From Calditrichota bacterium (lineage in GTDB: Bacteria > Caldisericota > Caldisericia > UBA6126), in contig DAIMET010000004.1 of NCBI GenBank assembly GCA_036725105.1, forward strand, positions 7,719-71,718: a DNA stretch of 64,000 nt, given 5' to 3'. Below the pieces are notes generated by a model. It saw only the letters and a program-made list of their open reading frames with translations. It made no database searches and was not told where the DNA came from. Of this stretch, positions 5,382-25,174 are shown piece after piece. The stretch's first letter is position 1. Every line of letters begins with the position of its first letter. The translations under genes were made by a program, and so were the position numbers.

Positions 5382-6937
<1,556 letters not shown>

Positions 6938-7046: not shown

Positions 7047-7107
7047 CAACCAATGTATGATTGATCGAATCTCTAAGCAACGAAGTTTCACGCACGAGTA
7101 TGTGCGA

Positions 7108-10082
<2,975 letters not shown>

Positions 10083-10169
10083 TCGCACTACTCTCGGAAA
10101 CTTCTTTGCTTAGACATTTGATCAACTACATTGGATGGTAAAAAACCTTCTAAAATTTTACGAAATTTT

Positions 10170-10287
<118 letters not shown>

Positions 10288-10448
10288 TTTTTTTATTGGT
10301 GCAGTGTAGACCATACAATCTCTTCTTTCCAATTCTTGCAATCTCAAGCCTCTTTCTTGGTTATTCAATTTTTTTTCAAACTCTTCTTTTATTACCTCCT
10401 CATCACATCCATTTATTCTATTGGAATCTATTCAAATCAGGAGGAATC

Positions 10449-10988
10449 ATGAAAAAGAATCATGATCGAAAAGAAGCGTTTACATTAGTAGAGTTGTTAA
10501 TCACCATTGGGATCATTGTTATTATTGCTGGTGTTGCAGTACCTCAAATTGCAGGGTATTTGAACAGAAGCAAATCCGCTAGAGCAAAGATGGATTTATC
10601 AACTATTTCGACAGCGATTAAATGTTTTTATACAGATTGGGGTCGTTATCCTGCTTCATTGGAAGATCTGTTAGGAACTGACACATCTCTAGATGCCGTA
10701 AACACATCTGATAATTATACCGTAGCAGGATTACCCGGTGGAATAAACTATCTTGGTGTTACAATCCCTGCTGATATTTTTAATCAAGCCAGCTCAGAGA
10801 ATACTTATAAGTACCTTCTATTTACCGGTGACCAAGACTATATCTTGTGGTCGATCGGCCCCAACAAAGAATCAGAAATTACAGAGCAGACAGCAGCATT
10901 ATCAGATGATGCTGTTACGATTACTACAACAGAAGAATTCGACGATATCTATGATTCCAACTGTTCTGTATCCGTTGCAATTTCATAG
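10449..10988 (+). CDS. Type IV pilin / GspG-ComGC-like major pseudopilin
   Basis: ATG 10449 after GAGG; KEA|FTLVELLITIGIIVIIAGVAVP N-methylation motif; SKSARAKMDLSTISTAIKCFYTDWGRYP is GspG-like. Confidence 0.9.
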   Translation: MKKNHDRKEAFTLVELLITIGIIVIIAGVAVPQIAGYLNRSKSARAKMDLSTISTAIKCFYTDWGRYPASLEDLLGTDTSLDAVNTSDNYTVAGLPGGINYLGVTIPADIFNQASSENTYKYLLFTGDQDYILWSIGPNKESEITEQTAALSDDAVTITTTEEFDDIYDSNCSVSVAIS

Positions 10989-11017
10989 CAATCTTTTTAC
11001 CGTAGCATATTGAGAAA

Positions 11018-11500
11018 ATGAACCTCCTTTTCATTTCTAGGAAACCAGGGTTTACTTATTTTGAAACCCTGGTTTCCGTATTCTGTATTCTGATTTTTGT
11101 AACTGGATTTCAAAAATGGATGCTATATTCTGTTTCCCAAAAAACAACTATTCATATTCAACAAAAACTAACTGAAACATCTCACTGTATCACGACGTTG
11201 CTTCAAAATTCCAATACCAGTTGGATTCAGGACGAAACTTTCAATCCTACACCCCTTCATTATCGATTCTTAACGCAGGATGCAATGAGTACAATACCCA
11301 TACCATTGATGAGTGCAAATTCTTTCTTGAAAATTTCTTTACCCACCGATATCACCCAATTGCCCTACAGTCTTATCATATCGAAATCTACTGCAGAATA
11401 CTATCAAACTGAGTACACCCTTTATCATGTAATCGTTTTTGATACTACAAACACACAACATTCCGCCATTTCTACGTTTATCAAGAAAACTGCCACATGA
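11018..11500 (+). CDS. Minor pilin (prepilin-type cleavage motif)
   Basis: KPG|FTYFETLVSVFCILIFV. Confidence 0.75.
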   Translation: MNLLFISRKPGFTYFETLVSVFCILIFVTGFQKWMLYSVSQKTTIHIQQKLTETSHCITTLLQNSNTSWIQDETFNPTPLHYRFLTQDAMSTIPIPLMSANSFLKISLPTDITQLPYSLIISKSTAEYYQTEYTLYHVIVFDTTNTQHSAISTFIKKTAT

Positions 11501-11979
11501 AGTTATTATCAAAGCAGTTAACTTGTTTCAGTACTATTGAAACATTAGTAAGTGTTGCGATATGCAGTATGATTCTTTTTCCTATTGGAGTATGGATTCA
11601 ACATTCTTCTCATCTCTACTACCAACAAACAAAAGAAAACTCTGTCCGTCTAGACGTTTTATTCTTACTCGAAGATATCGAAACCCATTGGATGCAGTTT
11701 TATTATGAGCCAGATGCAATCAGACCCAAAGAGGGAATCACAGAACAGGCTTTGTTCTTTAAAACCACAGATCAAAGGCTTGTACGTTACTATTCAAAGG
11801 GAAATGAAGTTGGTAGAGATATCAATTACAGTACATTTCAGAATCTGACACAAAAGGTTGTGAAGAGATTCAAAGTGACCAGGTGTTATGATGGTCAATA
11901 TGGGCAAATCCAGATTTGTATTGAAGATATTCTTGGAAGAAAGTACAACAAGCTATTATGCTTTCAACTACCTTCTTGA
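11497..11979 (+). CDS. Minor pilin (GspJ/ComGF-like)
   Basis: LTC|FSTIETLVSVAICSMIL; ATGA overlap with the previous gene. Confidence 0.7.
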   Translation: MKLLSKQLTCFSTIETLVSVAICSMILFPIGVWIQHSSHLYYQQTKENSVRLDVLFLLEDIETHWMQFYYEPDAIRPKEGITEQALFFKTTDQRLVRYYSKGNEVGRDINYSTFQNLTQKVVKRFKVTRCYDGQYGQIQICIEDILGRKYNKLLCFQLPS

Positions 11980-12551
11980 TGACAATGAATTCATTATCTA
12001 CGAATCAGAAAAACTTAAAAAATGCTTTTATTCTCCCAATTTCATTTTTTATCATTACATTGCTTTTAGTTGTAGCCATTTACTTTATGCATCAAACCAT
12101 TCGAAATCAGCATATGCTCCATGCTACTGTAAATCAAGTGAAATTGGATCAGGGAAAAGAGATTGGTGAAAAAGTTTTATTGGATCTGTATGCAAACCAG
12201 GGTCGCGAAATATTGAAAAACAGGATATCGCAGGAACCAAAGATTTATGTAAGAAGTAATCCTATTTACCCCGAAGATATGGCAATCGTTTTCTCTTTTA
12301 TAGATGAGACGTCTACAAAGTGTATTGTGCAAATGTCTATTTTCCTCTTAAAATCGGAAGAAAAAGGAATTCTTACACATCCTCTATTGCGAGTTCCTTT
12401 ATATGTGAATGCCTACCGAAAATGCTATGTTTTATCTCATCAATACATCTCTTCCTACTTTTTAACCATGAAGTATACTATTTCAACAGAAGAAGAGACC
12501 GACGGAAATATTCTTAACAAAGAAATTGTGAAGATTTACTACAATGGGTAA
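11958..12551 (+). CDS. Minor pilin-like protein (PilX/ComGG-like)
   Basis: KNA|FILP followed by a hydrophobic helix without E5; position in the pilin cluster. Confidence 0.55.
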   Translation: MLSTTFLMTMNSLSTNQKNLKNAFILPISFFIITLLLVVAIYFMHQTIRNQHMLHATVNQVKLDQGKEIGEKVLLDLYANQGREILKNRISQEPKIYVRSNPIYPEDMAIVFSFIDETSTKCIVQMSIFLLKSEEKGILTHPLLRVPLYVNAYRKCYVLSHQYISSYFLTMKYTISTEEETDGNILNKEIVKIYYNG

Positions 12552-13140
12552 GATTTTATTGTTAGCAATTCTTCTACTTTTCTCAGTTGAAGATATACGA
12601 TTCAAGAGTATTTCAGAGAAATGGTTTTGGGGATTAACAGGATTTGTTATTCTTTCGCTTCTTGTGCCACCTTTACAGATACATCTAGACCAGCATTTAG
12701 TAGTACCTTTGGATCTGAAGAACTTCTTAATCATGCATACGGGTGCTAGTTTTTTTGAAGAGTTTGTGAAAAGTCTTTTAGATGGTTTTTTTTCTTTTCG
12801 CTACTTTCACAGTTTATCTGGTACACCCTGGTTTACTAACATAGTGAACCTTATATCTAGAGCAGGAGTTGGATTCCTGCTATTATACATCCCCTATTTG
12901 ATCACAAGAAAAAAAAGTCTAGGAGAGGGTGATATTTTTTATTTCACACTCATTTCATGTTTGTTTCCAATATCCATCATATGGTTATCGTATTTTTTAG
13001 CTTTTTTTTCAGGTTGTTTCTTGTTTCTCTTTCTTATCATCTTGATTCCTGAAAAAAAACGAAAGAATCTTTGTTCCTACAAGATTCCCTTTATTCCTTT
13101 TCTTTCCCTCGGTTTTGTGATTGGTCTGTTTTTTCAATGA
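12544..13140 (+). CDS. A24 prepilin peptidase (no N-terminal Zn/methylase domain)
   Basis: SVEDIR and LGEGDI catalytic Asp motifs; C-terminal IPFIPFLSLG. Confidence 0.85.
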   Translation: MGKILLLAILLLFSVEDIRFKSISEKWFWGLTGFVILSLLVPPLQIHLDQHLVVPLDLKNFLIMHTGASFFEEFVKSLLDGFFSFRYFHSLSGTPWFTNIVNLISRAGVGFLLLYIPYLITRKKSLGEGDIFYFTLISCLFPISIIWLSYFLAFFSGCFLFLFLIILIPEKKRKNLCSYKIPFIPFLSLGFVIGLFFQ

Positions 13141-13712
13141 AAATCCAAAAAAATCGTCGGTTTCGTGCACACATCCTTTTTGAAATCTTTTTTTGGATGG
13201 CAATGATCATAATTTTAAGCGGTTCTTTTGTTTCACTTTCAAATGAAGTATTACAGCAAAGACAATTAGATTCTTCCATTTGTACCCTCGTAGAAGATCT
13301 TCAGTTGCTTCGAATGAAATCAATAGCTACCCACCAGGACTTACGCATCATGTTTTATCCAACAAAAAACACATATGTATTTGAAACTGAAGAAAATGGT
13401 CTAAATATACCAGGAAAATTTGTACAGAGAGTTTTTCCGAAAAATATCGGCTACCCATATTACTTTGGAGTTTACACTCCTTCTTACGTTGATGAATGGG
13501 GAAATATCTGCTCTGGATCTGTAGAATTTGGTTATAGTGGGTCTCCGTTGCTTCCACGTAAGTTAACCTTTAAACATACGGGAACTCCTTCGTGTGGAGG
13601 TCACATTATTCTCACATCCTATCCGGATTTTCGAAGTAGTGTTGTCATTGTAAAGGTCGCAACGGGCAGAATTAGAGTAGGACGTGTTACTTTTGCCCCA
13701 ATGGAACCATGA
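13137..13712 (+). CDS. Minor pseudopilin (GspH/FimT/ComGD-like)
   Basis: ATG 13137 (ATGA overlap); FRA|HILFEIFFWMAMIIILS; C-terminal VKVATGRIR typical of FimT/GspH. Confidence 0.7.
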   Translation: MKIQKNRRFRAHILFEIFFWMAMIIILSGSFVSLSNEVLQQRQLDSSICTLVEDLQLLRMKSIATHQDLRIMFYPTKNTYVFETEENGLNIPGKFVQRVFPKNIGYPYYFGVYTPSYVDEWGNICSGSVEFGYSGSPLLPRKLTFKHTGTPSCGGHIILTSYPDFRSSVVIVKVATGRIRVGRVTFAPMEP

Positions 13713-13830
13713 CAAAATCGAAAATTCGGAAATTCTTTACCAATTCGTCATTATTTCTCGGAAAAAATCCATATAATTAGTAATACTCATATATCTTTTT
13801 TATAAGGCGACCTTTTTAATGGAGGTTTAT

Positions 13831-14343
13831 ATGACAAAAAGCGGTAAAGTACTTTTTGCGACTATTGTATGCATTGTTTTAGCTGGTTTTGTGTTTTCTT
13901 CTCCGATGTTGCAACTTTTCTACCAAGATGCTGAACCCTTCAAGTTTTTTGGCTATGAATTTGCAGCTGAATTCGATCCCATTAAGATCGCTTCTGTGAA
14001 AGATATTCCGGACGGAACAGGGCATTCCTTTAGCGTAAAACTTGATCTCCCCTTTGCTGGTCCTCAATATGTCCGCCAAGATATTTATGGGATCATAACA
14101 CATATTGACGGCGATTTCCATGCATATAGTGCAGTATGTCCACACCTTGGATGTATTGTAAGATGGGATGAAGACCAAAACCCTGAACAAAGAATATGGT
14201 GTAATTGTCACAGTGGAGCTTTTAATCCATCCACTGGCGATGTAACAGCAGGACCTCCACCAAGAGGATTGCCAGTGTACACGATTTATGTTGAAGGAGA
14301 TGATATTTACCTAGAAAGCATCAAAGAAGAAGGTGCACAATGA
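13831..14343 (+). CDS. Membrane-anchored Rieske [2Fe-2S] protein
   Basis: GGAGGT RBS then ATG 13831; N-terminal TM; CPHLGC and CNCHSGAF boxes; GPPPRGL. Confidence 0.93.
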   Translation: MTKSGKVLFATIVCIVLAGFVFSSPMLQLFYQDAEPFKFFGYEFAAEFDPIKIASVKDIPDGTGHSFSVKLDLPFAGPQYVRQDIYGIITHIDGDFHAYSAVCPHLGCIVRWDEDQNPEQRIWCNCHSGAFNPSTGDVTAGPPPRGLPVYTIYVEGDDIYLESIKEEGAQ

Positions 14344-15347
14344 GAGATATCCAACCAAAAGCAGTATCCTATCTAAACAATCCCTTTTACTATTTGGGAG
14401 GGATCACCTTCATCTTCCTTGTATTCCAGGTTTTATCGGGAACATTTTTGTTTATGAACTTTGTTCCAGCTATAGGCGGAGCTTATAATACACCAATCCC
14501 AGGTGCCTATGGTTCTCTTGTTTATATCACGAACACTCTACCATTTGGCGTATATCTACGAACTTTTCACCGATTTGCAGCCATGGGAATGCTTCTATTT
14601 GCTATTCTTCACTTGATTCGTATGTGGACTACTAACAAAGTGTCTAAACCCAGAAATCTTGGGTGGATCAGTGGTTTAGTGCTAGTATTTTTCGTGGTAG
14701 TGATCATTTTTACTGGTTTTTTATCTTCATACACCCCGCAATTTGAAGCTATGCTCATGAAATGGGCAGAGTTTTTTGATTATGGCCGTCGAGAATACCA
14801 GAATTTGTTGTCTGCAAATTTTGGACTTCATCTCTTACTGCCCATTTTGATTTTGATTGGTCTCATTATTCATTTCAAAAGAATTGCCAGACCAAAAATA
14901 ACACCACCTCTTTCGCTTATTTTATTCATTACTGGGATACTCATTTTATTGACCGCATTGTTTCCCATTCCATTTTTACCCGAAGAGCCTGTTGCATTCG
15001 AAGGAACCATTCCCACTTTTATGCAACAGATGTCAGTGTTGATCATCTTTTTAGGAATTTGCGTCCTCCTTGCCTTTTTACCAATGATTCTTCGACGAAA
15101 GCAGCTTTTTGCGAAAGTCGATCAAATTCGATGTACGGGCTGTCTATATTGTGTCGATGTTTGTCCGAAAAAAGCAATAAAACCCATCACGAAAGGAACC
15201 AGAGTTGTAGCATTCGTTGATGAATCCAAATGCCAGGGATGCGGAATATGCGAAGGTACATGTCGATCTCTTGCAATCCAGATCTACAATGATCCCTCAA
15301 AATCTACTTTAGAGGAGGTTCGAGCAATATGGCTAACAAAGAATTAG
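14340..15347 (+). CDS. Cytochrome b (four His heme ligands, no PEWY) fused to a C-terminal 2x[4Fe-4S] ferredoxin domain
   Basis: H77/H91 and H164/H178 with 14-residue spacing; CTGCLYCVDVCP and CQGCGICEGTC. Confidence 0.9.
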   Translation: MRDIQPKAVSYLNNPFYYLGGITFIFLVFQVLSGTFLFMNFVPAIGGAYNTPIPGAYGSLVYITNTLPFGVYLRTFHRFAAMGMLLFAILHLIRMWTTNKVSKPRNLGWISGLVLVFFVVVIIFTGFLSSYTPQFEAMLMKWAEFFDYGRREYQNLLSANFGLHLLLPILILIGLIIHFKRIARPKITPPLSLILFITGILILLTALFPIPFLPEEPVAFEGTIPTFMQQMSVLIIFLGICVLLAFLPMILRRKQLFAKVDQIRCTGCLYCVDVCPKKAIKPITKGTRVVAFVDESKCQGCGICEGTCRSLAIQIYNDPSKSTLEEVRAIWLTKN

Positions 15348-15724
15348 TATACCTTTTCCCATGCCTCGCAGAAAAAAGAAAAAAACTCATCCAAGAACTC
15401 ACCAAAAAGTACTCTTCGATCAAAGTTGTACCAATAATTTGTGCGGGTCGCTTTAATACTAGTTTAGCTCTAAAACTTATACATGAAGGAGCAAAAGGGG
15501 TGATTGTTTTAGGCTGCGAACCCGGAGATTGTCATTATCGAGAGGGAGCTGTCTTTTCTGAAAGGCGCTTTCTCCTTGCAAAGCATACACTAAAGGCCTT
15601 CGGTCTGGAAGAAGATCGATTTCAGGCATTGTGGCATAAACCTTCGGATGTGAAACATACTATGAAAGAAGTAGAACAGTGCATGAAGCTCTTATCTGAT
15701 CTAGACGAAGAGGGGGCGAAATAA
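15329..15724 (+). CDS. mvhD: MvhD/FlxD-like [2Fe-2S] subunit
   Basis: PC..VPIICAGR..GAKGVIVLGCEPGDCHY MvhD signature. Confidence 0.9.
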   Translation: MANKELVYLFPCLAEKRKKLIQELTKKYSSIKVVPIICAGRFNTSLALKLIHEGAKGVIVLGCEPGDCHYREGAVFSERRFLLAKHTLKAFGLEEDRFQALWHKPSDVKHTMKEVEQCMKLLSDLDEEGAK

Positions 15725-16716
15725 TGAAAACCCAAATTGAAAAAAACATAAAGCAGCTCTTAAACGAAATGTGGAAACCAGGAGACCTGGCTCTAGCATG
15801 GAAAAAAGCTTCTTTGCCTGGACACCGAATTCCTGCTTTCATTACACAAAAAGAAGAGATTCAAGACATCATTTACGATTCTTTTTGTGATCTTTCATTG
15901 GCGAAATATGTCAATTCTTTTAATCGTAAAGAGATTTTACCTCCCACATTTAAAGGAAAAATCCATATTGTTTGCAAACCATGTGATGCAAAATCAGTAA
16001 TGCAAGCATTTGCAGATGAGCAAATTTCTGAAGAAATGATCAATTTAATTGTAGTTGCTTGCGATGGCATCATCGACCTAACCAAAATTGAAAAGGAATG
16101 TGAAAAAGCTATTGAAAGCTATCAAGAAGAAGATTATGTGATTGTTTGCAAAGATATTGATGGAAACGAACATCGCTTTGATAAGAGAGAGTATTGGCTG
16201 AGAAAATGTGCTGATACACGGAACTGCGATTTCCCATTTTATTACGGTTATTACTTTGTTGGTAACGAAAAAGAATACAAAAAGCGTATCAAGCACTACC
16301 GCAGTAATTGGAGAACTTTACCACAGGATACCATGTCACCCAAAGAACTACGAAACATGATTCACCAAGAGTTGCAGCGATGCATACGCTGTAATGCTTG
16401 CCGAAACATCTGTCCAGCCTGTTTCTGTTCTGATCAGTGTATATTTGACAAACCAAAAGAAAACGTGAACCTTCTTGACATCGATACATCCACAGAGAAT
16501 ACAATTTTGTATCACATGATACGTTTTCACCATGTAGCACCAAACTGTACCGGCTGTGGAGAATGCGAAAGAGCATGTCCAAGAAATATCCCATTACATA
16601 TTTTTTATGAGTATTTCAACCGATTAATGGAAGAAGAATTTGGTTACCAACCTGGTAAGACAAACGACGAAAGACAAAAGCTTCTTTCTTACAATCTAGG
16701 CGAAGACTTGGTTTAA
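15724..16716 (+). CDS. FlxC/FdhB(FrhB)-like 4Fe-4S subunit
   Basis: VCKPCD..VVACDG; RCIRCNACRNICPACFC; CTGCGECERACP. Confidence 0.8.
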   Translation: MKTQIEKNIKQLLNEMWKPGDLALAWKKASLPGHRIPAFITQKEEIQDIIYDSFCDLSLAKYVNSFNRKEILPPTFKGKIHIVCKPCDAKSVMQAFADEQISEEMINLIVVACDGIIDLTKIEKECEKAIESYQEEDYVIVCKDIDGNEHRFDKREYWLRKCADTRNCDFPFYYGYYFVGNEKEYKKRIKHYRSNWRTLPQDTMSPKELRNMIHQELQRCIRCNACRNICPACFCSDQCIFDKPKENVNLLDIDTSTENTILYHMIRFHHVAPNCTGCGECERACPRNIPLHIFYEYFNRLMEEEFGYQPGKTNDERQKLLSYNLGEDLV

Positions 16717-16725
16717 GGAGGAATC

Positions 16726-17769
16726 ATGAGAAAGAGATTAAAAATTGATCAATTCAAACCCTTTCTACAGGAATTGCAAAAACAGGCTACTCTGATTGCT
16801 CCTGTAAAAACTGAAACCAATGAGCGTGAATTCATGGTAGTACAAGATAACACCAATGTCGCATTGGAGGGATTTAATCCACTTCGCTCCCCGAAGGAGT
16901 TCATATTTCCACAAATGGAAAAGATGTTTGAGTATCATATCCAAAAAGATGGAAAAGCTACTATTAAAGAATCAATTCAAAAAGAACCACAAATTATCCT
17001 AGGTGTGCGCCCCTGTGATTTACATGCAATATCGTATATGCAAGAGTTTTACTCTTCCACCCACGAAGACCCCTATATCCTTGAAAAATTGGATTCGACG
17101 GTTATCATTGGGTGGGCATGTCAAGACCCTATGAATACATGTTTTTGTACTTCTGTTGGAGATTCCCCTGTAGACACAAAAGGTGCGGACATAATGATGG
17201 CTAAAACAGATCAATTTTATTTAATTGAAGTCCTTACCGCTAAAGGGAAAAAAGTGTTTGAAGCAGTTGAATCCCTTCTAGACGAATCTCTTGCAGAAGA
17301 TGATGAAATATACCCCATGATTCGTCGCAATACAGAATCCAAAATCCGAGAGAAAGTAGATCTTCTTTCCGTAAAGGGACGTATTGGGTCAGTGTATTCG
17401 TCTAGTTTTTGGAAAACGTATAGCGATACCTGCATTGCTTGTGGAAGCTGCACTTTTAACTGTCCAACTTGTACTTGTTTTGACACCTCTGACTCACTGG
17501 ACACTTGCCAAGATGGTTGCCGATATCGCACATGGGATACATGCCAAAATTATGCATTTACATTGCATGCTTCGGGTCACAATCCACGAGCAACTCGATT
17601 ACACCGTCTGCGTCAGCGAGTTATGCATAAATTTCATTATTCGGTAGAACAACTCGGTCTCTTTTCTTGTACTGGGTGTGGACGATGCACTCGATCATGT
17701 CCTGTTCGAATCGATATGGTTTCGATCATTAAAGATATCAAGGAGGCAGTTGATCATGGAGAAAAGTAA
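16726..17769 (+). CDS. FlxB/AsrA-like 4Fe-4S subunit
   Basis: GVRPCD; CFCTSVG; CIACGSCTFNCPTCTC; RLRQRVMHKF; CTGCGRCTRSCP. Confidence 0.87.
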   Translation: MRKRLKIDQFKPFLQELQKQATLIAPVKTETNEREFMVVQDNTNVALEGFNPLRSPKEFIFPQMEKMFEYHIQKDGKATIKESIQKEPQIILGVRPCDLHAISYMQEFYSSTHEDPYILEKLDSTVIIGWACQDPMNTCFCTSVGDSPVDTKGADIMMAKTDQFYLIEVLTAKGKKVFEAVESLLDESLAEDDEIYPMIRRNTESKIREKVDLLSVKGRIGSVYSSSFWKTYSDTCIACGSCTFNCPTCTCFDTSDSLDTCQDGCRYRTWDTCQNYAFTLHASGHNPRATRLHRLRQRVMHKFHYSVEQLGLFSCTGCGRCTRSCPVRIDMVSIIKDIKEAVDHGEK

Positions 17770-18643
17770 AAAAATGACAACTACATCACAAAATGAATAT
17801 CTCCCATTTTATGCCCTTATACGAGAAGTAGGTCAACAAACATCCACAGTAAAGCATTTTTGGGTAGAATTACCCAAAGACAAAATTCCAAAAAAATATG
17901 TTCCTGGACAGTTTTATCAACTCTCCCTTCCTGGTGTTGGAGAAGTACCAATATCCATCTCAGACTATGATCCGAAGGCTAATGCTCTTCTTTTTTGCAT
18001 CGCCAAAACGGGCGTTGTAACTAACAAAATTCATGAACTAAAAGAAGGAGAGTATCTAGGACTTCGTGGTCCCTATGGAAACGGCTTTCCAATGGATACT
18101 TTCCAAGGAAAGAACATTGTGGTCGTTGCAGGTGGAATTGGATTAGTTCCTTTGCGAAGCGTTATTGAAGAGTATTTTCGAAATCCTGACAAATATGGTG
18201 AATTGGAAATTTTGTATGGAGCTAGAAATTCCAATGAAATTGTATACAAAGAAGAAATGAAACAGTGGCGACTGAAGAAAAAAACAACCTGCAAAATAAC
18301 CATTGATAAGCCTGAAAAAGGATGGGATGGAAACACGGGTTTTGTGTGCAATCTTGTAGACCAATCTTATTGCGATTGCAGCGAAGTTCTGTTCCATGGG
18401 AATTCATCCGATCGAAGCAACACCGTAGTGTTGGTTGTAGGTCCACCTGTAATGTTTCAATCTATTTTAGATCAATTGTCCTCTATTCAATTTCCAGATG
18501 ATTCTGTTTTTGTATCCCTAGAGAATCACATGAAATGCGGAATTGGAAAATGCGGTCATTGCAACTGCGGTGGCAAATATGTTTGCCAAGATGGTCCCAT
18601 TTTTTCCTGGAAAGAATTGAAATCCATGGAAAAAGAGTACTAG
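17756..18643 (+). CDS. FlxA/AsrB-like FAD/NAD(P)-binding [2Fe-2S] subunit
   Basis: AGGAGG RBS then ATG 17756; PGQF, GEVPISI, RGPYGNGF, AGGIGLVP, VVGPPVM, MKCGIGKCGHC..CQDGP. Confidence 0.9.
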   Translation: MEKSKKMTTTSQNEYLPFYALIREVGQQTSTVKHFWVELPKDKIPKKYVPGQFYQLSLPGVGEVPISISDYDPKANALLFCIAKTGVVTNKIHELKEGEYLGLRGPYGNGFPMDTFQGKNIVVVAGGIGLVPLRSVIEEYFRNPDKYGELEILYGARNSNEIVYKEEMKQWRLKKKTTCKITIDKPEKGWDGNTGFVCNLVDQSYCDCSEVLFHGNSSDRSNTVVLVVGPPVMFQSILDQLSSIQFPDDSVFVSLENHMKCGIGKCGHCNCGGKYVCQDGPIFSWKELKSMEKEY

Positions 18644-18652
18644 GAGGAAGAT

Positions 18653-19804
18653 ATGTCTGTACAATCGAGCACATGGCAAAAAATAACCTACTGGTTGAAA
18701 AATCGATTTCGCAATATGGATATTTTTGACGAGACGCTGCAACCAAAGCACCCTCGAAATCCTGCTTATTGGATTGGTGGGATGTTATATCTTGGTTTGC
18801 TAATTCAGATATTACTTGGTTCGATATTAGCAATTTACTATATTCCTTCTTTTGAAATGGCTTACCGAAGTGTTGAATCAATCATGCAACTGCAATTGTT
18901 TGGAGTTCCAATTGGACCATGGCTACGTGGTTTTCACCGATATTTAGCAGATGCCATAATTATCCTAGCAATGCTTCGTGTTTTTCGCCTTTATTTTGCT
19001 GCTGATCACAAGAAACCACATGAATTTACATGGTTTTGGGCTGTTTTATTCGTTGTCATCACAACCGTATTTGGTTTCAGCGGATACATACTTCCCCTGG
19101 ATCAACGTGCATATTGGGCCACAACTATTGGAACCACAATGCCCACTTTTGTGGACGAACTACCACTGCTGGGCAATTTACATTTAGGGAACTTTTTACA
19201 GTTTATTGCTCGAGGTTCGGTTGTAATCTGCACGAACACCATTACACGTTTTTACGCTCTTCACTATGTCTTGCCTGTTGGCATTGTTGTGTTAGCAGAG
19301 TCGTATTTCTACTTCTTCCGTAAAAAAAGAGTGAATCTTCCTGCTTTAGGGGTGATACTGCTATTTGCTATTGTGATTGCATGGCAAATTCTCGAACCGG
19401 CTCATTCCTTAGCTCCTGCAGATCCCTCATCCCCTCCTGAGCACATTCTACCTGATTGGTATTTCTTGTTTGTTTACTATTTCCTTAAGATAATGAACTT
19501 TTTATGGGGAATTCTGTTTAATGTCATCTTTTTAGTGTTTGTCATTCTGATGCCATATATTGAAAGGAATCATTTTAGAAAACCATCGAAAAGACCTTTG
19601 TGGAATTCTCTTCTTGTTTTAGGCTATGCACTCTTCATTATTCTTTCATGGAGAGCTGCTGCTTATTCGGAATCAGAAGTGTTGCGCGCTGATATTCCTT
19701 GGATTTTCGGTGCATATATTGTGTTTATTCTTGTATTTGGCTGGTGGCAAAAGAAAGTAGATCAAAATGAAAAAAGAAAAGGCGAGTTGGTTCATCAGAA
19801 ATAG
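18653..19804 (+). CDS. Second cytochrome b (long form) with Qo motif PDWY, lacking both heme bH His ligands
   Basis: H95 and H204 kept; R109 and Y218 at the bH His positions; GYILPLDQRAYWA; P267DWY. Confidence 0.9.
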   Translation: MSVQSSTWQKITYWLKNRFRNMDIFDETLQPKHPRNPAYWIGGMLYLGLLIQILLGSILAIYYIPSFEMAYRSVESIMQLQLFGVPIGPWLRGFHRYLADAIIILAMLRVFRLYFAADHKKPHEFTWFWAVLFVVITTVFGFSGYILPLDQRAYWATTIGTTMPTFVDELPLLGNLHLGNFLQFIARGSVVICTNTITRFYALHYVLPVGIVVLAESYFYFFRKKRVNLPALGVILLFAIVIAWQILEPAHSLAPADPSSPPEHILPDWYFLFVYYFLKIMNFLWGILFNVIFLVFVILMPYIERNHFRKPSKRPLWNSLLVLGYALFIILSWRAAAYSESEVLRADIPWIFGAYIVFILVFGWWQKKVDQNEKRKGELVHQK

Positions 19805-20063
19805 CACATGGTTTTTTTGGGTAGCCCTTGTGCCAGCGGTTGTTCTTGGTAATGTTATTTTTCTTAGAATTCAACTATTGGCTCGTTTCGGTTTCCAAAC
19901 TACCCATTTTATCATGTTGCTATTTAGCTCACTGTTGTTTCTAGCACTTCTCCTTTTTCTTTGTTTTATCATCTACGTGCATGACTCGTTGAATGGAAAT
20001 ATCAAAAGACGATTGTCATGGTTTGATTCCTGGATCCAAAAATGGCATTTGGAGGAAGACTGA
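19767..20063 (+). CDS. Small 2-TM hypothetical protein
   Basis: 98 aa, two hydrophobic helices, overlaps the cytochrome b stop. Confidence 0.6.
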   Translation: MKKEKASWFIRNSTWFFWVALVPAVVLGNVIFLRIQLLARFGFQTTHFIMLLFSSLLFLALLLFLCFIIYVHDSLNGNIKRRLSWFDSWIQKWHLEED

Positions 20064-20064
20064 T

Positions 20065-20277
20065 ATGAAAAAAATTGAAAATATGCTGTCCATTCTGTCG
20101 TATGTATTTCTTGTATGTATTGTAATTTTGCTGGGCTTGTGTTCACACTACCACATTATTAATGACCAAAGAATGGTTGTTATTTGCTCTGGTTTGATAT
20201 TGATTCTTTTTGGTATTGTGTTCACACTAGAAACAAAACTAAAGTGGTTGGAGAGTGAAAAAAGATCATTAAAATGA
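20065..20277 (+). CDS. Small 2-TM hypothetical protein
   Basis: GGAGGA RBS then ATG 20065; 70 aa; ATGA overlap with the next gene. Confidence 0.65.
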   Translation: MKKIENMLSILSYVFLVCIVILLGLCSHYHIINDQRMVVICSGLILILFGIVFTLETKLKWLESEKRSLK

Positions 20278-22985
20278 AGCTACATCGTTTCATAGCTTTT
20301 GTTTTTTTATGTTGCCTGATCACAGGGTCGTCCCTTTCTCTTCCTGCAGTCGAAGGAAAGGATAGTCTTTCGATTGAACCGTCCTCTGTTTCTTTTTCCA
20401 TAACAACGACCCAACGCGATACAAAAGCGATTTTACTCACCAACCAATCATCTGAGTCCATACAATTTTCAGTCGTTAAGCAAGCTACTGAAAAAAGCAG
20501 TTCAACTGAAATATTACCATCCTTTCATGGAGATGCACCACAGGAAGTAGGTTCTCCCTGGGTTACTCCTCAATACAATTTTGCCAGAACGGGTTACAAT
20601 CTTATCGAATCAACGTCACCACCTTTTGAACAAAAATGGCGATCAACCTATACAAAAGCTTTGCTTCCCCCTGTTTTATCGGGTAACAACTTATACTTAC
20701 CCTCCGAAGATGGGAGAATTCATCACCTGCATTGTAGGACCGGTGTCAAAGAAGAAATGTTTCATATGGGCGAAGCTCTTTACTCTGTTCATCTATATAC
20801 GCGTTACCTCATTGTAGCTACTAACACAAATCTTGTCCTATTTGATCGAATTGCCAAACAGGTGATTTGGACTCGACCTTACTTTGTTCCAAGCATGTAC
20901 GGCGTTGCAGCTTGGGAGGGCCTGTTGTTTATAGGGACACAGACTAAACTTATCTGTTTGGATCTTATCACTGGACGAGAGATATGGTACAAGCCAGGAT
21001 TATGTGAATACATCTCAACTGATCAAGGGGTTGTAGCAGCTGTGTTGGATTCTTCAACACTTTTTATTGCGCGCGGACAATCTGGAAATGAGATTGTTTC
21101 GATTTCTACTCAAGAAATTTTTACAGGTCCCGCCGTTTTTACCCAGGACAATTTGTATTACTGTACTACTCAACAAGACCTGAAAAAAAGTCATGTTGTT
21201 CGATTTTCGTTAGACGGAAAAAAGCAGTGGGAATACATACAAGAAAACTATATTCCTTCTTCTCTAGCTGTAGACGATCAACATGTGTATTTCTGTACAA
21301 ATCAGGGAGATGTGGTTGCTCTTGAACGTTTCTCTGGGAAGAAGCAGTGGGAAAAAAACATCCATTCCCCCATCCTGATCCCACCTATCGTAGCGTGGAA
21401 TTCCATTTATATAGGCGGAAACGACGGTGCAATCCATTGTTTTAACCGAAATAATGGTACAGACATTTGGAACTACAAAATGTCTTTTCCTCTCAATTCA
21501 CCTTTTGTTATGGCGCAAGGTTTTTTGTATTTTGCCGACAATACTGGGAATTTTTATGCCTTTTGTCGCATTGGAGAAAATGTTCTTCCCCCTTATGCTC
21601 CTGCACGCGTCAAGGGCTATCCTGGAAATCAAAAATTTGTGTTAAGCTGGGAAATTGAGCAGCCAAAACCAGATTTAGCAGGTTTTCATATTTATCGAAA
21701 GAAAGAATTTGAACGTGATTTTTCATTTATAGACAAAACGGATATTGTCAGTTTTTATGAAGATAGTCCCCTTGAGAATGGAGAGAAAGTCAGCTATATT
21801 GTTCGAGCATTTGATACATATGGCAATGAAAGCACCAGCTCCAATATGGTCACGGGTATACCTTCTCAAGATCCAACACCAACCTGGCTTGATTATGTTC
21901 CGACATCCGGTAGTATTAAGCCAAACGATTCGGTCATCCTTACGGTTAAGGTTGATGGCTCTAAGGTTCCCCCTGGTGAATATCATGCTGAACTTGTACT
22001 ACTTTGCTCCCATCTTCCACCCAATGAGAATACAATTCATATTCCTGTATCCATGAAGACATCAAAAGGAGATTCTTCTATTCTTCAGCCTCCTTCTCTT
22101 GAGACAATTACAAGTTCTGACACCAGAGCGTTGCTGAAGTGGAGGAAGTATCCTGCAATATGGTCCATATATGTGTATCGCTCCACGGTGTCTCAAGATG
22201 AAATGGTGCGAATTGCTTCCGTAAGAGGAACTGAAGAGCAATATATTGACGATACCGTCCAAAATGGTGTAATGTATTATTATTCCCTAAAAGCAGTATC
22301 TGAAGATGGTTTATTGAGTGACTTTTCCAACGAGCTTTCTATTGTTCCTATGCCAGCTTCACTCCAAATTTTAAAAGAGAATAGTATTACTGTTTTTCAT
22401 CCAGTTTTTGATATACAGGGGAAAGCAGACCCGAAAGCCAAACTCACTGTACAAGGCCATCCCATTGAGTTAAAAGCTGATGGAACTTTTACCACTCCTC
22501 TCGGAGTACCAGTTGGAATCAGCACTCTTTTCTTCCAGGCTATTGCAACAGATCAGACTGTACAAGAAAAAAAGATAGAAGTGAATTGCATCTCTGAATC
22601 CTATACCATCAAAATGCAGATTCAAAATCCAAATGTAACTGTGAATGATCTTCCATGGCCCTGGGCATTAGAAGCACCCCCTATACTGGAATCTCAAAGA
22701 ACCTTTGTGCCCTTGCGCTTTATTAGTGAAATTGTAGGGGGGTCTGTTCTGTGGGATTCGGAAGAAAAAAGAATTCAAGTTTTGTATAAACAAAACGAAG
22801 TAGTATTATGGATAGGGAAAAGAGAAATTTTAGTCAATGGCAAAAAAGAAAAAATTGATGCTCCGCCATTCATTTTGAACGGTCGCACACTTGTACCATT
22901 GCGATTTGTTACCGAGCCATTGGGAGCAAAAATTGAGTGGAAAGCTGAAACTCGTACAATTTTACTTTCTTTCCATTTTACTTAA
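20274..22985 (+). CDS. Secreted PQQ-like beta-propeller + fibronectin III + copper amine oxidase N-terminal (stalk) domain protein
   Basis: Signal peptide; repeated G..W propeller motifs; two FN3-like GFHIYR/IYVYR segments; C-terminal RTFVPLRFISE..RTLVPLRFVTEPLGAKIEW. Confidence 0.85.
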   Translation: MKLHRFIAFVFLCCLITGSSLSLPAVEGKDSLSIEPSSVSFSITTTQRDTKAILLTNQSSESIQFSVVKQATEKSSSTEILPSFHGDAPQEVGSPWVTPQYNFARTGYNLIESTSPPFEQKWRSTYTKALLPPVLSGNNLYLPSEDGRIHHLHCRTGVKEEMFHMGEALYSVHLYTRYLIVATNTNLVLFDRIAKQVIWTRPYFVPSMYGVAAWEGLLFIGTQTKLICLDLITGREIWYKPGLCEYISTDQGVVAAVLDSSTLFIARGQSGNEIVSISTQEIFTGPAVFTQDNLYYCTTQQDLKKSHVVRFSLDGKKQWEYIQENYIPSSLAVDDQHVYFCTNQGDVVALERFSGKKQWEKNIHSPILIPPIVAWNSIYIGGNDGAIHCFNRNNGTDIWNYKMSFPLNSPFVMAQGFLYFADNTGNFYAFCRIGENVLPPYAPARVKGYPGNQKFVLSWEIEQPKPDLAGFHIYRKKEFERDFSFIDKTDIVSFYEDSPLENGEKVSYIVRAFDTYGNESTSSNMVTGIPSQDPTPTWLDYVPTSGSIKPNDSVILTVKVDGSKVPPGEYHAELVLLCSHLPPNENTIHIPVSMKTSKGDSSILQPPSLETITSSDTRALLKWRKYPAIWSIYVYRSTVSQDEMVRIASVRGTEEQYIDDTVQNGVMYYYSLKAVSEDGLLSDFSNELSIVPMPASLQILKENSITVFHPVFDIQGKADPKAKLTVQGHPIELKADGTFTTPLGVPVGISTLFFQAIATDQTVQEKKIEVNCISESYTIKMQIQNPNVTVNDLPWPWALEAPPILESQRTFVPLRFISEIVGGSVLWDSEEKRIQVLYKQNEVVLWIGKREILVNGKKEKIDAPPFILNGRTLVPLRFVTEPLGAKIEWKAETRTILLSFHFT

Positions 22986-22997
22986 AGAGGTAATACA

Positions 22998-24107
22998 ATG
23001 ATAATACAATGTAAAAAGAATGACCTGAGTACTATTTTGCAGGAAATGATCACCGTGATTCCTTCTAGTTCTTTAGTTCCTATACTCAACTGTTTTCATT
23101 TTTCCGTGAAGAATCAGCAGATTACCATAACAGCCTCCGATTTAGAAATAGGTTTTACAAGTCATCTAGACTGTGAAGCTGATGGAGAAACAACGGTTGC
23201 GATTCCAGCCAAGCTTCTAACCGATATCGTAAAAAGTATGGACGAAGAGATTATTAAATTAGAATTTCAAGATTTGCATCTAACCATCTATGGGCAAACT
23301 AGCCATTTTTCGATTCATTGTATCAATCCAGATGAATTCCCATCATTACCCGAAGTAGTTGGTACTGCTTATGAAGTCCCGATTAGTAAGCTCATTTCGT
23401 TATATAACAAAGTTTCTCCAGCTGTCTCTCAGAAAATGGAAGGAAATCTGAATCTGCACTGTATTCCGTTACAATCAGACGGTCACGAACTACGTATGAT
23501 TGCCTCAGATGCACAACGACTTGTTGTGGCCAAAACCATTGAAGAGAAGGACTATGATACGATTCGCGTTCTTACTCTTCCCAAAGTGTTTAAAATTTTG
23601 TCCCGTATCGCATTAAAAGCCCATACAGATACTATGAAAATGGTTGTAGCAGAGCGTGAGATCATGTTTTCTTTTGACAAACAAATTCTTGTATCTCGTT
23701 TAGTGGACTCTAACTTTCCTGATTACAACAAGGTAATACCAAAAGAATCATCGTACCGATTTATTGTGAATCGAGAAAAACTTCTTCATGCTTTACAGCG
23801 ACTTTACCTCGTAGTTCGAAATAATACCAGTCGTATCAGTATGAAATTAAAGGAAAACTCTGTTATGTTGATTGCCAATGATCCTGAAATAGGTTCTGGT
23901 GAAGAAGAGATTCCAGTGGAATATCTGGATCGTAGCGGAGAAGCTTGTGAAGTCCTTTTTGATGCCAGGTACATGATTGAGGGCGTAGAAGGTGTCGAAA
24001 CCAGTCTTGTAGAATACAATCTTCAAGGTTCTATTCATCCACTGGTTGTTAAAGAGCCTGAATCGGATAATTATCTCTATGTTTTGGTGACTATCCGGAT
24101 GAAATAA
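22998..24107 (+). CDS. dnaN: DNA polymerase III beta sliding clamp
   Basis: 369 aa; ITASDLEIG, ASDAQRL, SRLVDSNFPDYNKVIP, FDARY. Confidence 0.96.
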   Translation: MIIQCKKNDLSTILQEMITVIPSSSLVPILNCFHFSVKNQQITITASDLEIGFTSHLDCEADGETTVAIPAKLLTDIVKSMDEEIIKLEFQDLHLTIYGQTSHFSIHCINPDEFPSLPEVVGTAYEVPISKLISLYNKVSPAVSQKMEGNLNLHCIPLQSDGHELRMIASDAQRLVVAKTIEEKDYDTIRVLTLPKVFKILSRIALKAHTDTMKMVVAEREIMFSFDKQILVSRLVDSNFPDYNKVIPKESSYRFIVNREKLLHALQRLYLVVRNNTSRISMKLKENSVMLIANDPEIGSGEEEIPVEYLDRSGEACEVLFDARYMIEGVEGVETSLVEYNLQGSIHPLVVKEPESDNYLYVLVTIRMK

Positions 24108-25174
24108 TGTATGTTGACCACCTGCAGGCAACAAGTTTTCGTTGTTTTGATCAAATCGATTGTATGTTTTCCAGAAACACCAATATTATCTTTGGGAAAA
24201 ATGGAGCTGGGAAAACTAATTTTTTAGAAGCAGTACATTTTGCTTTGCAGGGAAATGGTTTTCGCACACGTCAAGATTTCCATTTGCTCAAATACTCCAC
24301 CCCATTCCTCCGAACTGAAATAGAAGTATATACGCAAAGCATGAACAAAACCATTTCAGTGTCGTGGGAAAAAAACGGGAAAAAACGAATTGTCATCAAC
24401 GGCATGGACAATCAACGGATCGTCGACTTATTTGGCACTTGTTACGTTGTGTTAATGACCCCGAGTACGCCCGAACTTGTTAAGGGAGGACCAGAGTATA
24501 GGCGCAAATTTATTGATCGAATTCATGCCAAAGAAAATCCCCCCTATTTAGCTATATTAAATCGATATGCCATCACGTATAAATCCAGAAACATTTTGAT
24601 TAAAAAAGGTCTTCGAGAATCTCAGGATCGTAAGCTGTATGATATTCTCACTCACACTATTCTTGATCTTTCTACTGTGATCCAGAAAGAGCGGAGAAAT
24701 ACGATTGAAAAGATGCAAAAAGTTTTTACTACGGTTTGTGATCAATTGTGCTTCCCCGTTCTGAACGATATTCAACTTGTATATTCTCCTTCTTCACTGG
24801 ATGTTAATCTATATTCTCTTCGAGAGCAGGAAGTACTGCGAGGAAGCTCTCTTGTCGGTGCTCATTTGGACAGAATAAGTATAAAAAGAGATACAAAGTC
24901 TATCCGTATTTATGGCTCAGAGGGAGAACAGAAAATTATATCTTTTGTACTAAAATTGTGTGAGTTTCATTTCCTGGAACGTGAAACAAAAAGTGTACCT
25001 GTTGTTCTTTTGGATGATTTTCAATCAGAGCTAGACCAAGATAATTTCCAGATGTTGCTTGACTTCATTCAGCCCAAAGCACAGATTTTCATCACTTCTT
25101 TACATCCCTCACTAATCAACGATGCTGGAAGGCAGTTTGAAATCCGAGAAGGAAGAGTGTATGGAAAAGATTAA
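24107..25174 (+). CDS. recF: DNA replication/repair protein RecF
   Basis: GKNGAGKTNFLEA, GGPEYRRKFID, GAHLD, GSEGEQK, VVLLDDFQSELD. Confidence 0.95.
   Translation: MYVDHLQATSFRCFDQIDCMFSRNTNIIFGKNGAGKTNFLEAVHFALQGNGFRTRQDFHLLKYSTPFLRTEIEVYTQSMNKTISVSWEKNGKKRIVINGMDNQRIVDLFGTCYVVLMTPSTPELVKGGPEYRRKFIDRIHAKENPPYLAILNRYAITYKSRNILIKKGLRESQDRKLYDILTHTILDLSTVIQKERRNTIEKMQKVFTTVCDQLCFPVLNDIQLVYSPSSLDVNLYSLREQEVLRGSSLVGAHLDRISIKRDTKSIRIYGSEGEQKIISFVLKLCEFHFLERETKSVPVVLLDDFQSELDQDNFQMLLDFIQPKAQIFITSLHPSLINDAGRQFEIREGRVYGKD

Follow-up and report, generated by a model that had tools for sequence, protein, structure and literature searches.

A stretch of 64,000 nucleotides from the genome of a Calditrichota bacterium placed by GTDB in the Caldisericota (assembly GCA_036725105.1, contig DAIMET010000004.1, positions 7,719 to 71,718; the whole stretch is referred to here as the window) includes a tight operon, 13831-20277, in which a Rieske protein is encoded together with two diverged paralogues of cytochrome b. 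In order, the genes specify the Rieske protein, a first cytochrome b (copy 1) that carries a 2x[4Fe-4S] domain, an MvhD/FlpD-type protein, a 330-amino-acid iron-sulphur (Fe-S) protein, a 347-amino-acid Fe-S protein of the Fer4_22 type, a protein with flavin adenine dinucleotide (FAD), NAD(P) and [2Fe-2S] domains, a second cytochrome b (copy 2), and two small proteins with two transmembrane helices each (sm1 and sm2). Adjacent genes overlap or are separated by 9 base pairs, the stop codon of the Rieske gene overlaps the start of copy 1, and GGAGG-type sites are found upstream of most of the genes. The features are listed in Table 1; residue, codon and coordinate numbers are those of the window, and all operon genes lie on the plus strand. 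The closest genome match was a Caldisericia metagenome-assembled genome (MAG) from an anaerobic membrane bioreactor, with a copy 2 that is 97% identical in amino acid sequence. The question addressed here is what kind of membrane complex the two cytochromes b may form with the other products of the operon.

Table 1. Genes, key residues and motifs of the operon and of the gene that follows it
Feature	Position	Strand	Evidence and remarks
Rieske [2Fe-2S] protein, one N-terminal transmembrane helix	13831..14343	+	PF00355 1.3e-11; likelier start 13831 (open reading frame, ORF, open from 13819), GGAGG just before
Cytochrome b copy 1, 335 amino acids, b6-like core helices A-D, two more transmembrane helices and 2x[4Fe-4S]	14340..15347	+	Pfam Cytochrome_B 1.1e-16, Fer4 1.5e-11
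Copy 1 haem-ligand codons H77 (14568), H91 (14610), H164 (14829), H178 (14871)	14568..14873	+	
Copy 1 two CxxCxxCxxxC [4Fe-4S] motifs, C265 to C308	15132..15263	+	All eight Cys invariant
MvhD/FlpD-type [2Fe-2S] electron-transfer subunit	15329..15724	+	PF02662 80.5 bits; PDB 8rvu_F 1.9e-16, 5odc_D 3.4e-15
330-amino-acid Fe-S protein, C-terminal two-cluster domain FdhB-like	15724..16716	+	Pfam Fer4_8; PDB 7bkb_E 8.7e-19, 9t1s_M 1.2e-19
347-amino-acid Fe-S protein, HydB/ShyB/AsrA-like (sulfhydrogenase beta type)	16726..17769	+	PF17179 104.9 bits; NCBIfam ShyB 3e-57; PDB 9nez_B 3e-46
FAD, NAD(P)-binding and [2Fe-2S] protein, HydG/AsrB/PyrK-like	17756..18643	+	Start most likely 17756; PF00175, PF10418; NCBIfam PRK08345 1.6e-73; PDB 9nez_C 1e-52
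Cytochrome b copy 2, 383 amino acids, eight-helix bc1-type	18653..19804	+	Both N- and C-terminal cytochrome b Pfam domains; AGGAGG upstream
Copy 2 key codons H95 (18935), R109 (18977, CGT), A130 (19040), H204 (19262), E216 (19298), Y218 (19304, TAT)	18935..19306	+	
Copy 2 PDWY motif, residues 267-270	19451..19462	+	
sm1, small subunit with two transmembrane helices; C-terminal basic stretch, then aromatic-acidic-aromatic motif	19767..20063	+	Conserved C-terminal motif
sm2, second small protein with two transmembrane helices	20065..20277	+	ORF open from 19993, likely start 20065
903-amino-acid exported beta-propeller protein, PQQ_2/BamB-like, Cu_amine_oxidN1-type C-terminus	20274..22985	+	

Comparison of copy 2 with the b6 and bc1 cytochromes b by HMMER placed H95 and H204 on the ligands of the low-potential haem, bL (bp), and R109 and Y218 on the ligand positions of the high-potential haem, bH (bn). 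R109 pairs with the second ligand His of helix B, and Y218 stands at the second ligand His of helix D. The quinol-oxidation (Qo) site is represented by GYILPLDQ and PDWY. The coordinates and residues from which the original prediction started (H95, H204, R109, Y218 and PDWY) were all reproduced, and GYILPLDQRAYWA is present at residue 144. A single-chain AlphaFold2 (AF2) model was of moderate confidence, with a mean pLDDT (predicted local distance difference test score) of 75.6, and Foldseek aligned it to full-length bc1 cytochrome b with TM-scores (template modelling scores) of 0.64-0.70.

Copy 1 is incomplete in a different region. Its sole histidines are H77, H91, H164 and H178, and phmmer against b6 placed the first two on the ligand His of helix B and the other two on those of helix D. 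Similarity to b6 ends after FTGFLSS, right past helix C. The cd region that follows is short, with 38 residues from G126 to H164 versus 60 from G144 to H204 in copy 2, and neither GYxLPxDQ nor PEWY was found in the sequence alignments of copy 1. Six predicted transmembrane segments are followed by the ferredoxin-like domain and, because their number is six, this domain would be located on the cytoplasmic (n) side, beside bH. The AF2 model of the single chain, again of moderate confidence, had a mean pLDDT of 75.9, and the top Foldseek matches were cytochrome b, b6 and QcrB cores. The four histidines, the short cd region, the missing PEWY and the C-terminal 2x[4Fe-4S] domain agree with what had been predicted for this copy. 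Of the sequence signatures of a bc complex, the four ligand histidines are therefore found in copy 1 and not in copy 2, and the Qo elements (cd-helix GYxLPWxQ, ef-loop P[ED]W[YF]) are found in copy 2 and are absent from the window's copy 1.

For a wider comparison, 80 loci were taken from GTDB species representatives, and the same residues were tabulated in 82 copy-2-type and 67 copy-1-type sequences. Both bL histidines (the H95 and H204 positions) are present in every sequence of either type. The helix-B bH position (109) is Arg in 78 and Lys in 4 of the copy-2-type proteins, never His, and it is His in all 67 copy-1-type proteins. At the helix-D bH position (218) the copy-2-type residue is Tyr, Phe, Leu, Arg or Trp, with His in 1 of the 82, and the copy-1-type residue is again always His (67/67). 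The n-side Gly of helix C, which packs against bH, is kept in 4 of the 82 and in all 67, and it is otherwise replaced by Ala, Leu or Ser (A130 in the window). Position 216 is Glu in 82/82 copy-2-type sequences and Trp, Ile or Val in the copy-1-type. The Qo motif [PS]DWY is found in all 82 copy-2-type proteins and is variable in the other type; the glycines of the p-side and GYxL are likewise invariant in the copy-2-type (82/82). The original prediction had depended on the orthologues of copy 2 lacking the bH histidines, and these counts leave it standing.

A residue pattern that recurs in 82/82 sequences of one type and 67/67 of the other is far beyond chance, and misalignment of the His positions was ruled out as well by the agreement of three methods, namely HMMER against PDB b6 and bc1, MAFFT family alignments, and hmmalign of cluster representatives. 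The helix-B His is gone from all database homologues of copy 2, down to 31% identity, and Arg/Lys109 and E216 are fixed across lineages that share just 31-40% identity. When 1.84 billion cluster representatives were searched with a profile, scores fell sharply from 306 to 222 bits, and this gap set apart about 18 clusters (50% identity), all of which have the arrangement H-R/K-x-H-E.

These data bear directly on the idea that copy 2 is a decaying duplicate, or a structural or regulatory pseudo-subunit without redox function, that lost its bH ligands neutrally. Loss of haem ligands is what would be expected of a degenerating duplicate, and the helix-D position does vary (Y, F, L, R, W, H). Against this, the gene is intact and preceded by an AGGAGG site, the bL ligands, p-side glycines, GYxL and [PS]DWY are all invariant, and the Arg/Lys109 and E216 residues have held at 31-40% identity. 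The decay or pseudogene reading was rejected on these conservation data, and we give next to no weight to neutral loss of the ligands. The loss of bH appears instead, and this is well supported, to reflect purifying selection on a specific new state rather than drift, because three independent markers of bH loss occur together with a fixed Arg/Glu pair. Selection rather than decay had already been suggested from the replacement of both ligands of one haem, and the invariant E216 and the exchange of the helix-C Gly for Ala, Leu or Ser bear that suggestion out.

The two types of cytochrome b occur together. Both paralogues are present in 65/65 loci that are not truncated by contig ends. The lineages represented, no fewer than seven at the level of phyla, are Caldisericota, Armatimonadota, ANGP1, Sysuimicrobiota, Bacillota (including a Symbiobacterium thermophilum MAG), Holophagaceae, Melainabacteria/Vampirovibrionales and Anaerolineae. 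A Rieske gene is present in most loci, MvhD was detected after copy 1 in many, and two small proteins with two transmembrane helices follow copy 2 in the loci inspected. In a neighbour-joining tree that included canonical cytochromes b, the two types formed separate clades with mirrored internal branching. Their pairwise distance matrices were correlated (r = 0.69), and none of 2000 permutations reached a value as high.

The order of the genes differs between lineages. Caldisericota loci have Rieske, the Fe-S-fused cytochrome b (b1FeS), MvhD, three soluble genes, the copy-2-type gene (b2), sm1 and sm2, and the other phyla have Rieske, b2, smA, smB, b1FeS and MvhD, so that the b2-sm-sm block is constant. 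In loci of high guanine-plus-cytosine content, where clustering of neighbourhoods was noisy (shadow ORFs), the neighbourhoods were read from Pfam scans of L016 and L075. In the melainabacterial locus L075 (5072-7262) the core module directly follows FixO-like and di-haem cytochrome c genes. In the ANGP1 locus L016 (5890-6999, 11696-12088) the module is flanked by cytochrome c and then by cupredoxin, polyprenyl synthetase and TatC genes. The copy-2-type proteins of the Caldisericales branch (P0018-P0022, P0087; loci L032, L041, L049, L050, L060, L077) are longer than that of the window; a long stretch of hydrophilic and acidic character is inserted into the p-side loop that follows helix A, and the proteins measure 458-686 amino acids (stop-to-stop ORFs up to 709 amino acids).

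The features of copy 1 are not all equally widespread. The four histidines are invariant in 24/24 homologues and in the 67 tabulated sequences, and the two CxxCxxCxxxC motifs were found in 65/67, the remaining two ORFs being cut by contig ends. The fusion of an Fe-S domain to the four-His copy, described at first for a single protein, is therefore universal in the copy-1-type. The shortened cd region and the missing ef motif are seen in a single Caldisericia subclade, to which the window belongs together with L001 and L003-L015. Copy-1-type proteins of other phyla retain GYxLVWD[EQ] and xDWF or xDVF, and those of other Caldisericales retain GYxLPxDG and FDWV. The complementary losses of the original prediction consequently hold family-wide for the bH of copy 2, and for the Qo of copy 1 they hold in this subclade only. 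A distant relative, P0086 (L083, 4074-5654), combines cytochrome b, 2x[4Fe-4S] and MvhD/FlpD in a single polypeptide of 526 amino acids. Because one chain fuses the two, P0086 supports direct contact between the copy 1 Fe-S domain and MvhD, and with it the route from bH through the Fe-S domain to MvhD that had been proposed. The P0086 gene is divergent from genes for an Rrf2 regulator, a COX1-like haem-copper oxidase or nitric oxide reductase, and SCO1/SenC.

The soluble proteins encoded between the two cytochromes b all have recognisable relatives. The MvhD subunit scored 80.5 bits against a PF02662 cut-off of 22.3 and aligns to 8rvu_F and 5odc_D over a region that includes the GCxxGDCHY stretch. 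The 330-amino-acid protein is assigned in its C-terminal half only, where it matches the FdhB-like Fe-S domain of PDB 7bkb; HdrA and a subunit of the MvhD type are part of the same structure entry. The FAD/NAD(P)/[2Fe-2S] subunit (PF00175 and PF10418) and the Fer4_22-type subunit (PF17179) are both present; all NCBIfam scores were below the equivalog cut-offs, which marks these proteins as relatives, not orthologues, of HydB/G or AsrA/B. Domains of HdrA, HdrB and HdrC were not found in the operon or its flanks. Taken together, the domain assignments indicate that the soluble partners are a coherent module leading from NAD(P)H to Fe-S. An MvhD protein with two Fe-S proteins and an FAD/NAD(P) protein is also the domain composition that has been reported for FlxDCBA, a likeness that concerns composition. 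The three soluble genes (FdhB-like, HydB/AsrA-like and HydG/AsrB-like) were found only in Caldisericota, and in the two loci examined from other phyla (L075 and L016) the cytoplasmic end consists of MvhD alone. The Flx-like NAD(P)H outlet originally envisaged was accordingly retained for the Caldisericota; elsewhere the chain stops at MvhD.

The Rieske protein of the window has the CxH and CxxH boxes of a Rieske [2Fe-2S] protein as well as the disulfide cysteines. Box I is CPHLGC at residue 107 and CNCH begins at residue 128 (counted on the ORF from 13819), with a box II of CNCHSGAF. Rieske proteins from the other phyla have a box II of the form CPCH[LF]SIY and a twin-arginine (Tat) motif. Those of the Caldisericota have C[NR]CH.G.F, and the window's subclade also lacks the RR pair (MTKSGKVLF...). 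The Ser and Tyr of box II raise the potential of the bc1 Rieske cluster by roughly 130 and 65 mV, as determined by mutagenesis, and on their absence the Caldisericota Rieske protein is predicted to be of low potential. Such a protein would fit the PDWY motif of copy 2, which is the motif of menaquinol oxidisers; among bacteria, PDWY was found only in these (Kao and Hunte, PMC4122944).

These observations lead us to propose that the genes at 13831-20277 encode one membrane complex with an obligate asymmetric cytochrome b heterodimer as its core. Copy 2 would be the half with the quinol site and, with the Rieske protein, would form the only competent p-side Qo site, of the menaquinol type (PDWY). 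It would hold haem bL only, its bH pocket being occupied by a putative pair of Arg109 and Glu216 and by a larger residue on helix C. Copy 1 would be the half that acts as a wire; in the window it has lost the Qo elements, and it would keep both bL and bH, with the cytoplasmic 2x[4Fe-4S] domain next to bH. Because copy 2 has no second haem, and hence no exit within the monomer, an electron on its bL would have to cross a bL-bL bridge to copy 1. The full chain would then run Qo/Rieske, bL(2), bL(1), bH(1), 2x[4Fe-4S], MvhD [2Fe-2S], 330-amino-acid Fe-S protein, HydB-like Fe-S protein, HydG-like [2Fe-2S]/FAD protein and NAD(P)(H), the order of the soluble Fe-S subunits being, like the Arg-Glu pair, inferred. 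We consider an obligate heterodimer with one Qo site and three b haems, continued by Fe-S, MvhD and FAD/NAD(P) carriers, to be reasonably probable. This reading comes from sequence logic, strict co-occurrence and co-phylogeny: the two paralogues are obligatorily co-encoded, and since each half is incomplete alone (copy 2 without bH, the window's copy 1 without cd/PEWY) the heterodimer is the simplest assembly that would work.

The operon could instead encode two separate enzymes, a homodimer of copy 1 acting as an NAD(P)H:menaquinone oxidoreductase in the manner of Qmo, HdrDE or DsrMK, and a separate module of Rieske and copy 2; in that case electrons would not pass from the bL of one paralogue to that of the other. 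Beyond the subclade of the window, copy-1-type proteins have Qo-like motifs as well as the four ligands and could handle quinone alone, the P0086 fusion has no Rieske or copy-2 gene nearby, and the anchoring of cytoplasmic oxidoreductases to the membrane by cytochrome b is a known arrangement (Dibrova et al. 2017, PMC5600118). A homodimer of copy 2 with Rieske, however, would have no exit for the bL electron and hence no turnover at Qo; bc1 dimers engineered with bH knocked out in both halves are non-functional (PMC4152375). The window's copy 1, lacking cd/PEWY, shows no obvious quinone site on the p-side, and the strict co-occurrence, the mirrored phylogenies and the synteny of the copy 2-sm1-sm2 block with copy 1 are hard to reconcile with independent enzymes. 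On balance we regard two separate enzymes as improbable.

Several observations nonetheless weigh against the obligate heterodimer, or against parts of it. About 5 of the roughly 18 clusters keep the helix-D His, though never that of helix B, and a non-standard haem site is conceivable in them. No natural fusion of two cytochromes b was seen among the best 150 matches from the 1.84 billion representatives, where the members of about 690 amino acids have the ab-loop insertion and no second cytochrome b. As most copy-1-type proteins keep Qo-like motifs, the logic of complementary losses is weaker family-wide, and those outside the window's subclade could be self-sufficient. P0086 has no Rieske or copy-2 gene within about 4 kilobases (kb) on its 9.5-kb contig, and because it stands alone copy-1-type modules may work without a copy-2 partner. 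The missing twin-arginine motif makes the export of the window's Rieske protein, and the side of the membrane on which it lies, less certain. Its low potential is a prediction that draws on mutagenesis of bc1 Rieske proteins. Finally, no ORF of at least 80 amino acids with CxxCH was found on or near the operon strand and no donor or acceptor for the Rieske protein was identified; the 64-kb window contains a single ORF of this kind, which is 96 amino acids long and maps to the minus strand near 62286.

Of the whole scheme, we are least sure of the direction in which electrons flow, and the chain would in principle be reversible. For the Caldisericia version we lean, by a narrow margin, towards NAD(P)H as the donor, because box II lacks Ser and Tyr, the Qo motif is that of menaquinol oxidisers and the neighbourhood has no gene for a c-type cytochrome. 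The enzyme would then be an NAD(P)H-fed Rieske/cytochrome b complex with a single Qo site, in which electrons enter the b haems from the cytoplasm at bH(1) and pass either to a quinone-reduction (Qi)-type site on copy 1 or across to the Qo site of copy 2. According to the symmetry rule quoted in PMC12954380, bL would lie near -250 mV with menaquinone, and reduction of NAD(P)+ from menaquinol would for this reason be uphill and against the membrane potential. In the anammox bacteria the proposal that NAD(P)+ is reduced through bifurcation of quinol electrons is backed by exceptionally high Rieske potentials of +303 and +335 mV (PMC12954380); the Caldisericota case would be the opposite, since the Rieske sequence looks low-potential.

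The same three-haem heterodimer could also run forward. Menaquinol would be oxidised at the Qo site of copy 2, one electron passing through Rieske to a p-side acceptor and the other through bL(2), bL(1), bH(1), Fe-S, MvhD and FAD to NAD(P)+ or another low-potential acceptor, that is, a bifurcation without Qi. All the architectural evidence applies equally to this scheme, and the loss of bH and Qi on copy 2, together with the lack of obvious Qi residues on copy 1, fits an export of low-potential electrons. The Kuenenia complexes with cytoplasmic NAD(P) oxidoreductases provide a conceptual precedent (PMC12954380), and the aerobic lineages have cytochrome c, cupredoxin and cbb3-type genes beside the core module and a Rieske protein with Ser and Tyr, which would exert a strong pull. 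The Caldisericota, in contrast, have a Rieske protein without either of the potential-raising residues and no gene for a high-potential acceptor, and the unfavourable position of bL with menaquinone also counts against the scheme. Bifurcation would be easiest in the aerobic lineages, yet these lack the NAD(P)H module, which was found in the anaerobic lineage alone. We therefore hold forward bifurcation to be unlikely but a serious rival of the NAD(P)H-fed heterodimer, above all for the aerobic versions.

The proposed heterodimer shares with bc1 and b6f complexes the CxHxGC and CxCH boxes of the Rieske protein, the cytochrome b fold, the bL histidines, the p-side glycines and PDWY. The core of those complexes is a homodimer in which a single kind of cytochrome b supplies four b haems and two sites each of the Qo and Qi types. 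The complex described here would have instead two diverged paralogues, one without bH ligands and the other fused to an Fe-S domain and, in the window, without Qo, a composition that predicts three b haems and one Qo site. No gene for an acceptor subunit of the bc complexes (cytochrome c1, cytochrome f or a di-haem cytochrome c) was found in the operon; cytochrome c or cupredoxin genes are near the Melainabacteria and ANGP1 versions.

The closest functional parallel may be the anammox complexes R/b-2 and R/b-3 (Kuenenia Kuste4569-4574 and Kustd1480-1485), in which Rieske/cytochrome b is also combined with a cytoplasmic Fe-S/FAD NAD(P) oxidoreductase. It has been proposed that in these complexes the low-potential branch of b haems communicates with NAD(P)(H), and an AlphaFold 3 (AF3) model has a single cytoplasmic module on the dimer (PMC12954380). 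Their cores were modelled as cytochrome b homodimers with a full set of haems, to which one more haem, predicted to lie on the axis of the dimer, was added; their NAD(P) module is formylmethanofuran dehydrogenase-like, and there are octa- and hexa-haem c subunits (PMC12954380). In the Caldisericota operon, unlike these, the asymmetry resides in two genes, the link consists of a fused ferredoxin domain, MvhD and HydBG-like proteins, there are no haem c motifs by the operon and the Rieske protein looks low-potential.

A second parallel is artificial. Rhodobacter bc1 dimers were engineered, as cytochrome b-b fusions or in two-tag systems, so that H212N removed bH from one half and G158W inactivated Qo in the other; they permitted photosynthetic growth through the bL-bL bridge, and symmetric knockouts failed (PMC4152375). 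The window's copy 2 and copy 1 naturally reproduce both lesions. The engineered enzyme is a normal Q-cycle enzyme that keeps Qi, however, and the natural pair has R109 and E216 as compensating residues and a predicted cytoplasmic Fe-S exit or entry. Coupling of a di-haem membrane cytochrome b to [4Fe-4S] clusters and MvhD/HdrA-type partners is also seen in modules that connect the quinone pool with cytoplasmic flavoproteins, namely QmoC, HdrDE, DsrMK and, as regards the soluble part, FlxABCD-HdrABC. Unlike QmoC, HdrDE and DsrMK, the operon encodes a cytochrome b of the bc1/b6 family (PF00033), not of the NarI/HdrE type, together with Rieske and a second cytochrome b, and it contains no HdrA/B/C genes.

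Cytochromes b that lack haem ligands have been described before. That of Pyrobaculum is systematically without the second bH His (PMC4122944), and according to Dibrova et al. 2017 the cyanobacterial subfamily K has Glu or Gln for the helix-2 His and no bn-packing glycine (PMC5600118). The copy-2-type differs from both in having Arg/Lys and an invariant Glu, and neither of the two was described as paired with a four-His, Fe-S-fused paralogue. A large survey of Qo motifs dropped sequences that missed any of the four histidines (PMC4122944), and because of this filter the copy-2 clade may have gone unnoticed. Dibrova et al. 2017 also state that "in many other cases" genes for oxidoreductases are neighbours of those for cytochrome b, and they place a clade G' in "large conserved operons" whose function is not known (PMC5600118). 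The text consulted does not describe the pair of bH-less and Fe-S-fused cytochromes b, although clade G' could overlap with the family. Full-text literature searches gave no description of the pair; Dibrova et al. 2013 (PMC3839093) and ten Brink et al. 2013, which were outside the scope of that search, could mention it. With no prior description found, a Rieske/cytochrome b complex with a heterodimeric, three-haem core that ends in Fe-S clusters appears new. In the literature the Melainabacteria version goes simply by the names petB/petC, within a complex III/IV operon (PMC6349859); this "b6f-like complex III/IV operon" appears to encode the bH-less and Fe-S-fused pair and not a standard b6f.

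The surroundings of the operon were also annotated. The gene for the 903-amino-acid propeller protein stays beside the operon across Caldisericota, either after sm2 or, in L060 and L077, upstream of the operon; the protein may not belong to the complex. Domain scans detected no redox-cofactor domain in sm1, sm2 or the propeller protein, and no redox-cofactor motif was seen in the last of these. A promoter and terminator scan of 10000-25500 found fewer sites than, or no more than, shuffled sequence. Immediately downstream are dnaN, recF and a gene with a DciA domain (22998-25598), with no dnaA seen between them. Upstream, a type IV pilin/pseudopilin-like cluster (10296-13712) adjoins the Rieske gene. 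It encodes a T2SSG protein with an N-methylation motif (10446-10988), a polytopic membrane protein (12544-13140) and four more proteins with pilin-like N-termini and no Pfam matches; the 56%-identical locus L001 has the same arrangement of pilin genes before the operon, with a Peptidase_A24 prepilin peptidase in addition. Immediately upstream of the pilin and Rieske region is a complete 16S-23S-5S ribosomal RNA operon (5382-10287), and its 175-base-pair 16S-23S spacer gave no match to a transfer RNA. At the start of the window, a NuoF-type NADH_4Fe-4S and ferredoxin protein (48-944, possibly cut by the window edge) precedes a 1189-amino-acid fusion (961-4530) of 2Fe-2S, GltD/NfnB-like FAD/NAD(P), Nqo3-type ferredoxin and molybdopterin-oxidoreductase domains; this resembles an enzyme of the formate dehydrogenase kind that is linked to NAD(P)H. 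Elsewhere, 44731-45636, 47989-49500 and 54847-60489 hold genes for a WYL-domain protein, a Fic/DOC-domain protein, and a series of sensor proteins rich in PAS domains with a histidine kinase, and these have no evident link to the operon.

It has been debated for decades whether electron transfer from one bL haem to the other really takes place in complex III, and what purpose the dimer serves; engineered asymmetric mutants have been the main means of study. If the obligate heterodimer is real, evolution has run the bL-bL experiment itself and produced an enzyme that works only through the bridge, which would offer a clean natural system for measuring the transfer. A connection of Rieske/cytochrome b with cytoplasmic NAD(P)(H) has so far been proposed, and is unproven, only for the anammox bacteria (PMC12954380); the heterodimer would provide another case, independent of the first and simpler in its genetics. 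In its widest form the proposal is of a "complex III" without a Q-cycle, in which a heterodimer with three b haems and one Qo site would use bL-bL transfer as its sole catalytic route and the low-potential branch would enter or leave through Fe-S/MvhD instead of Qi. Such an enzyme would connect the menaquinone pool with NAD(P)(H) or carriers at the level of ferredoxin in organisms from anaerobic Caldisericota to aerobic Armatimonadota, Bacillota and Melainabacteria. We put this wider picture forward as a tentative one, possible but somewhat short of probable. "Complex III" and "b6f" annotations in MAGs of poorly known phyla would be affected, and the standard Q-cycle models applied there may be wrong. 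Since the core module is present in a MAG assigned to a cultured species, Symbiobacterium thermophilum, experiments should be feasible.

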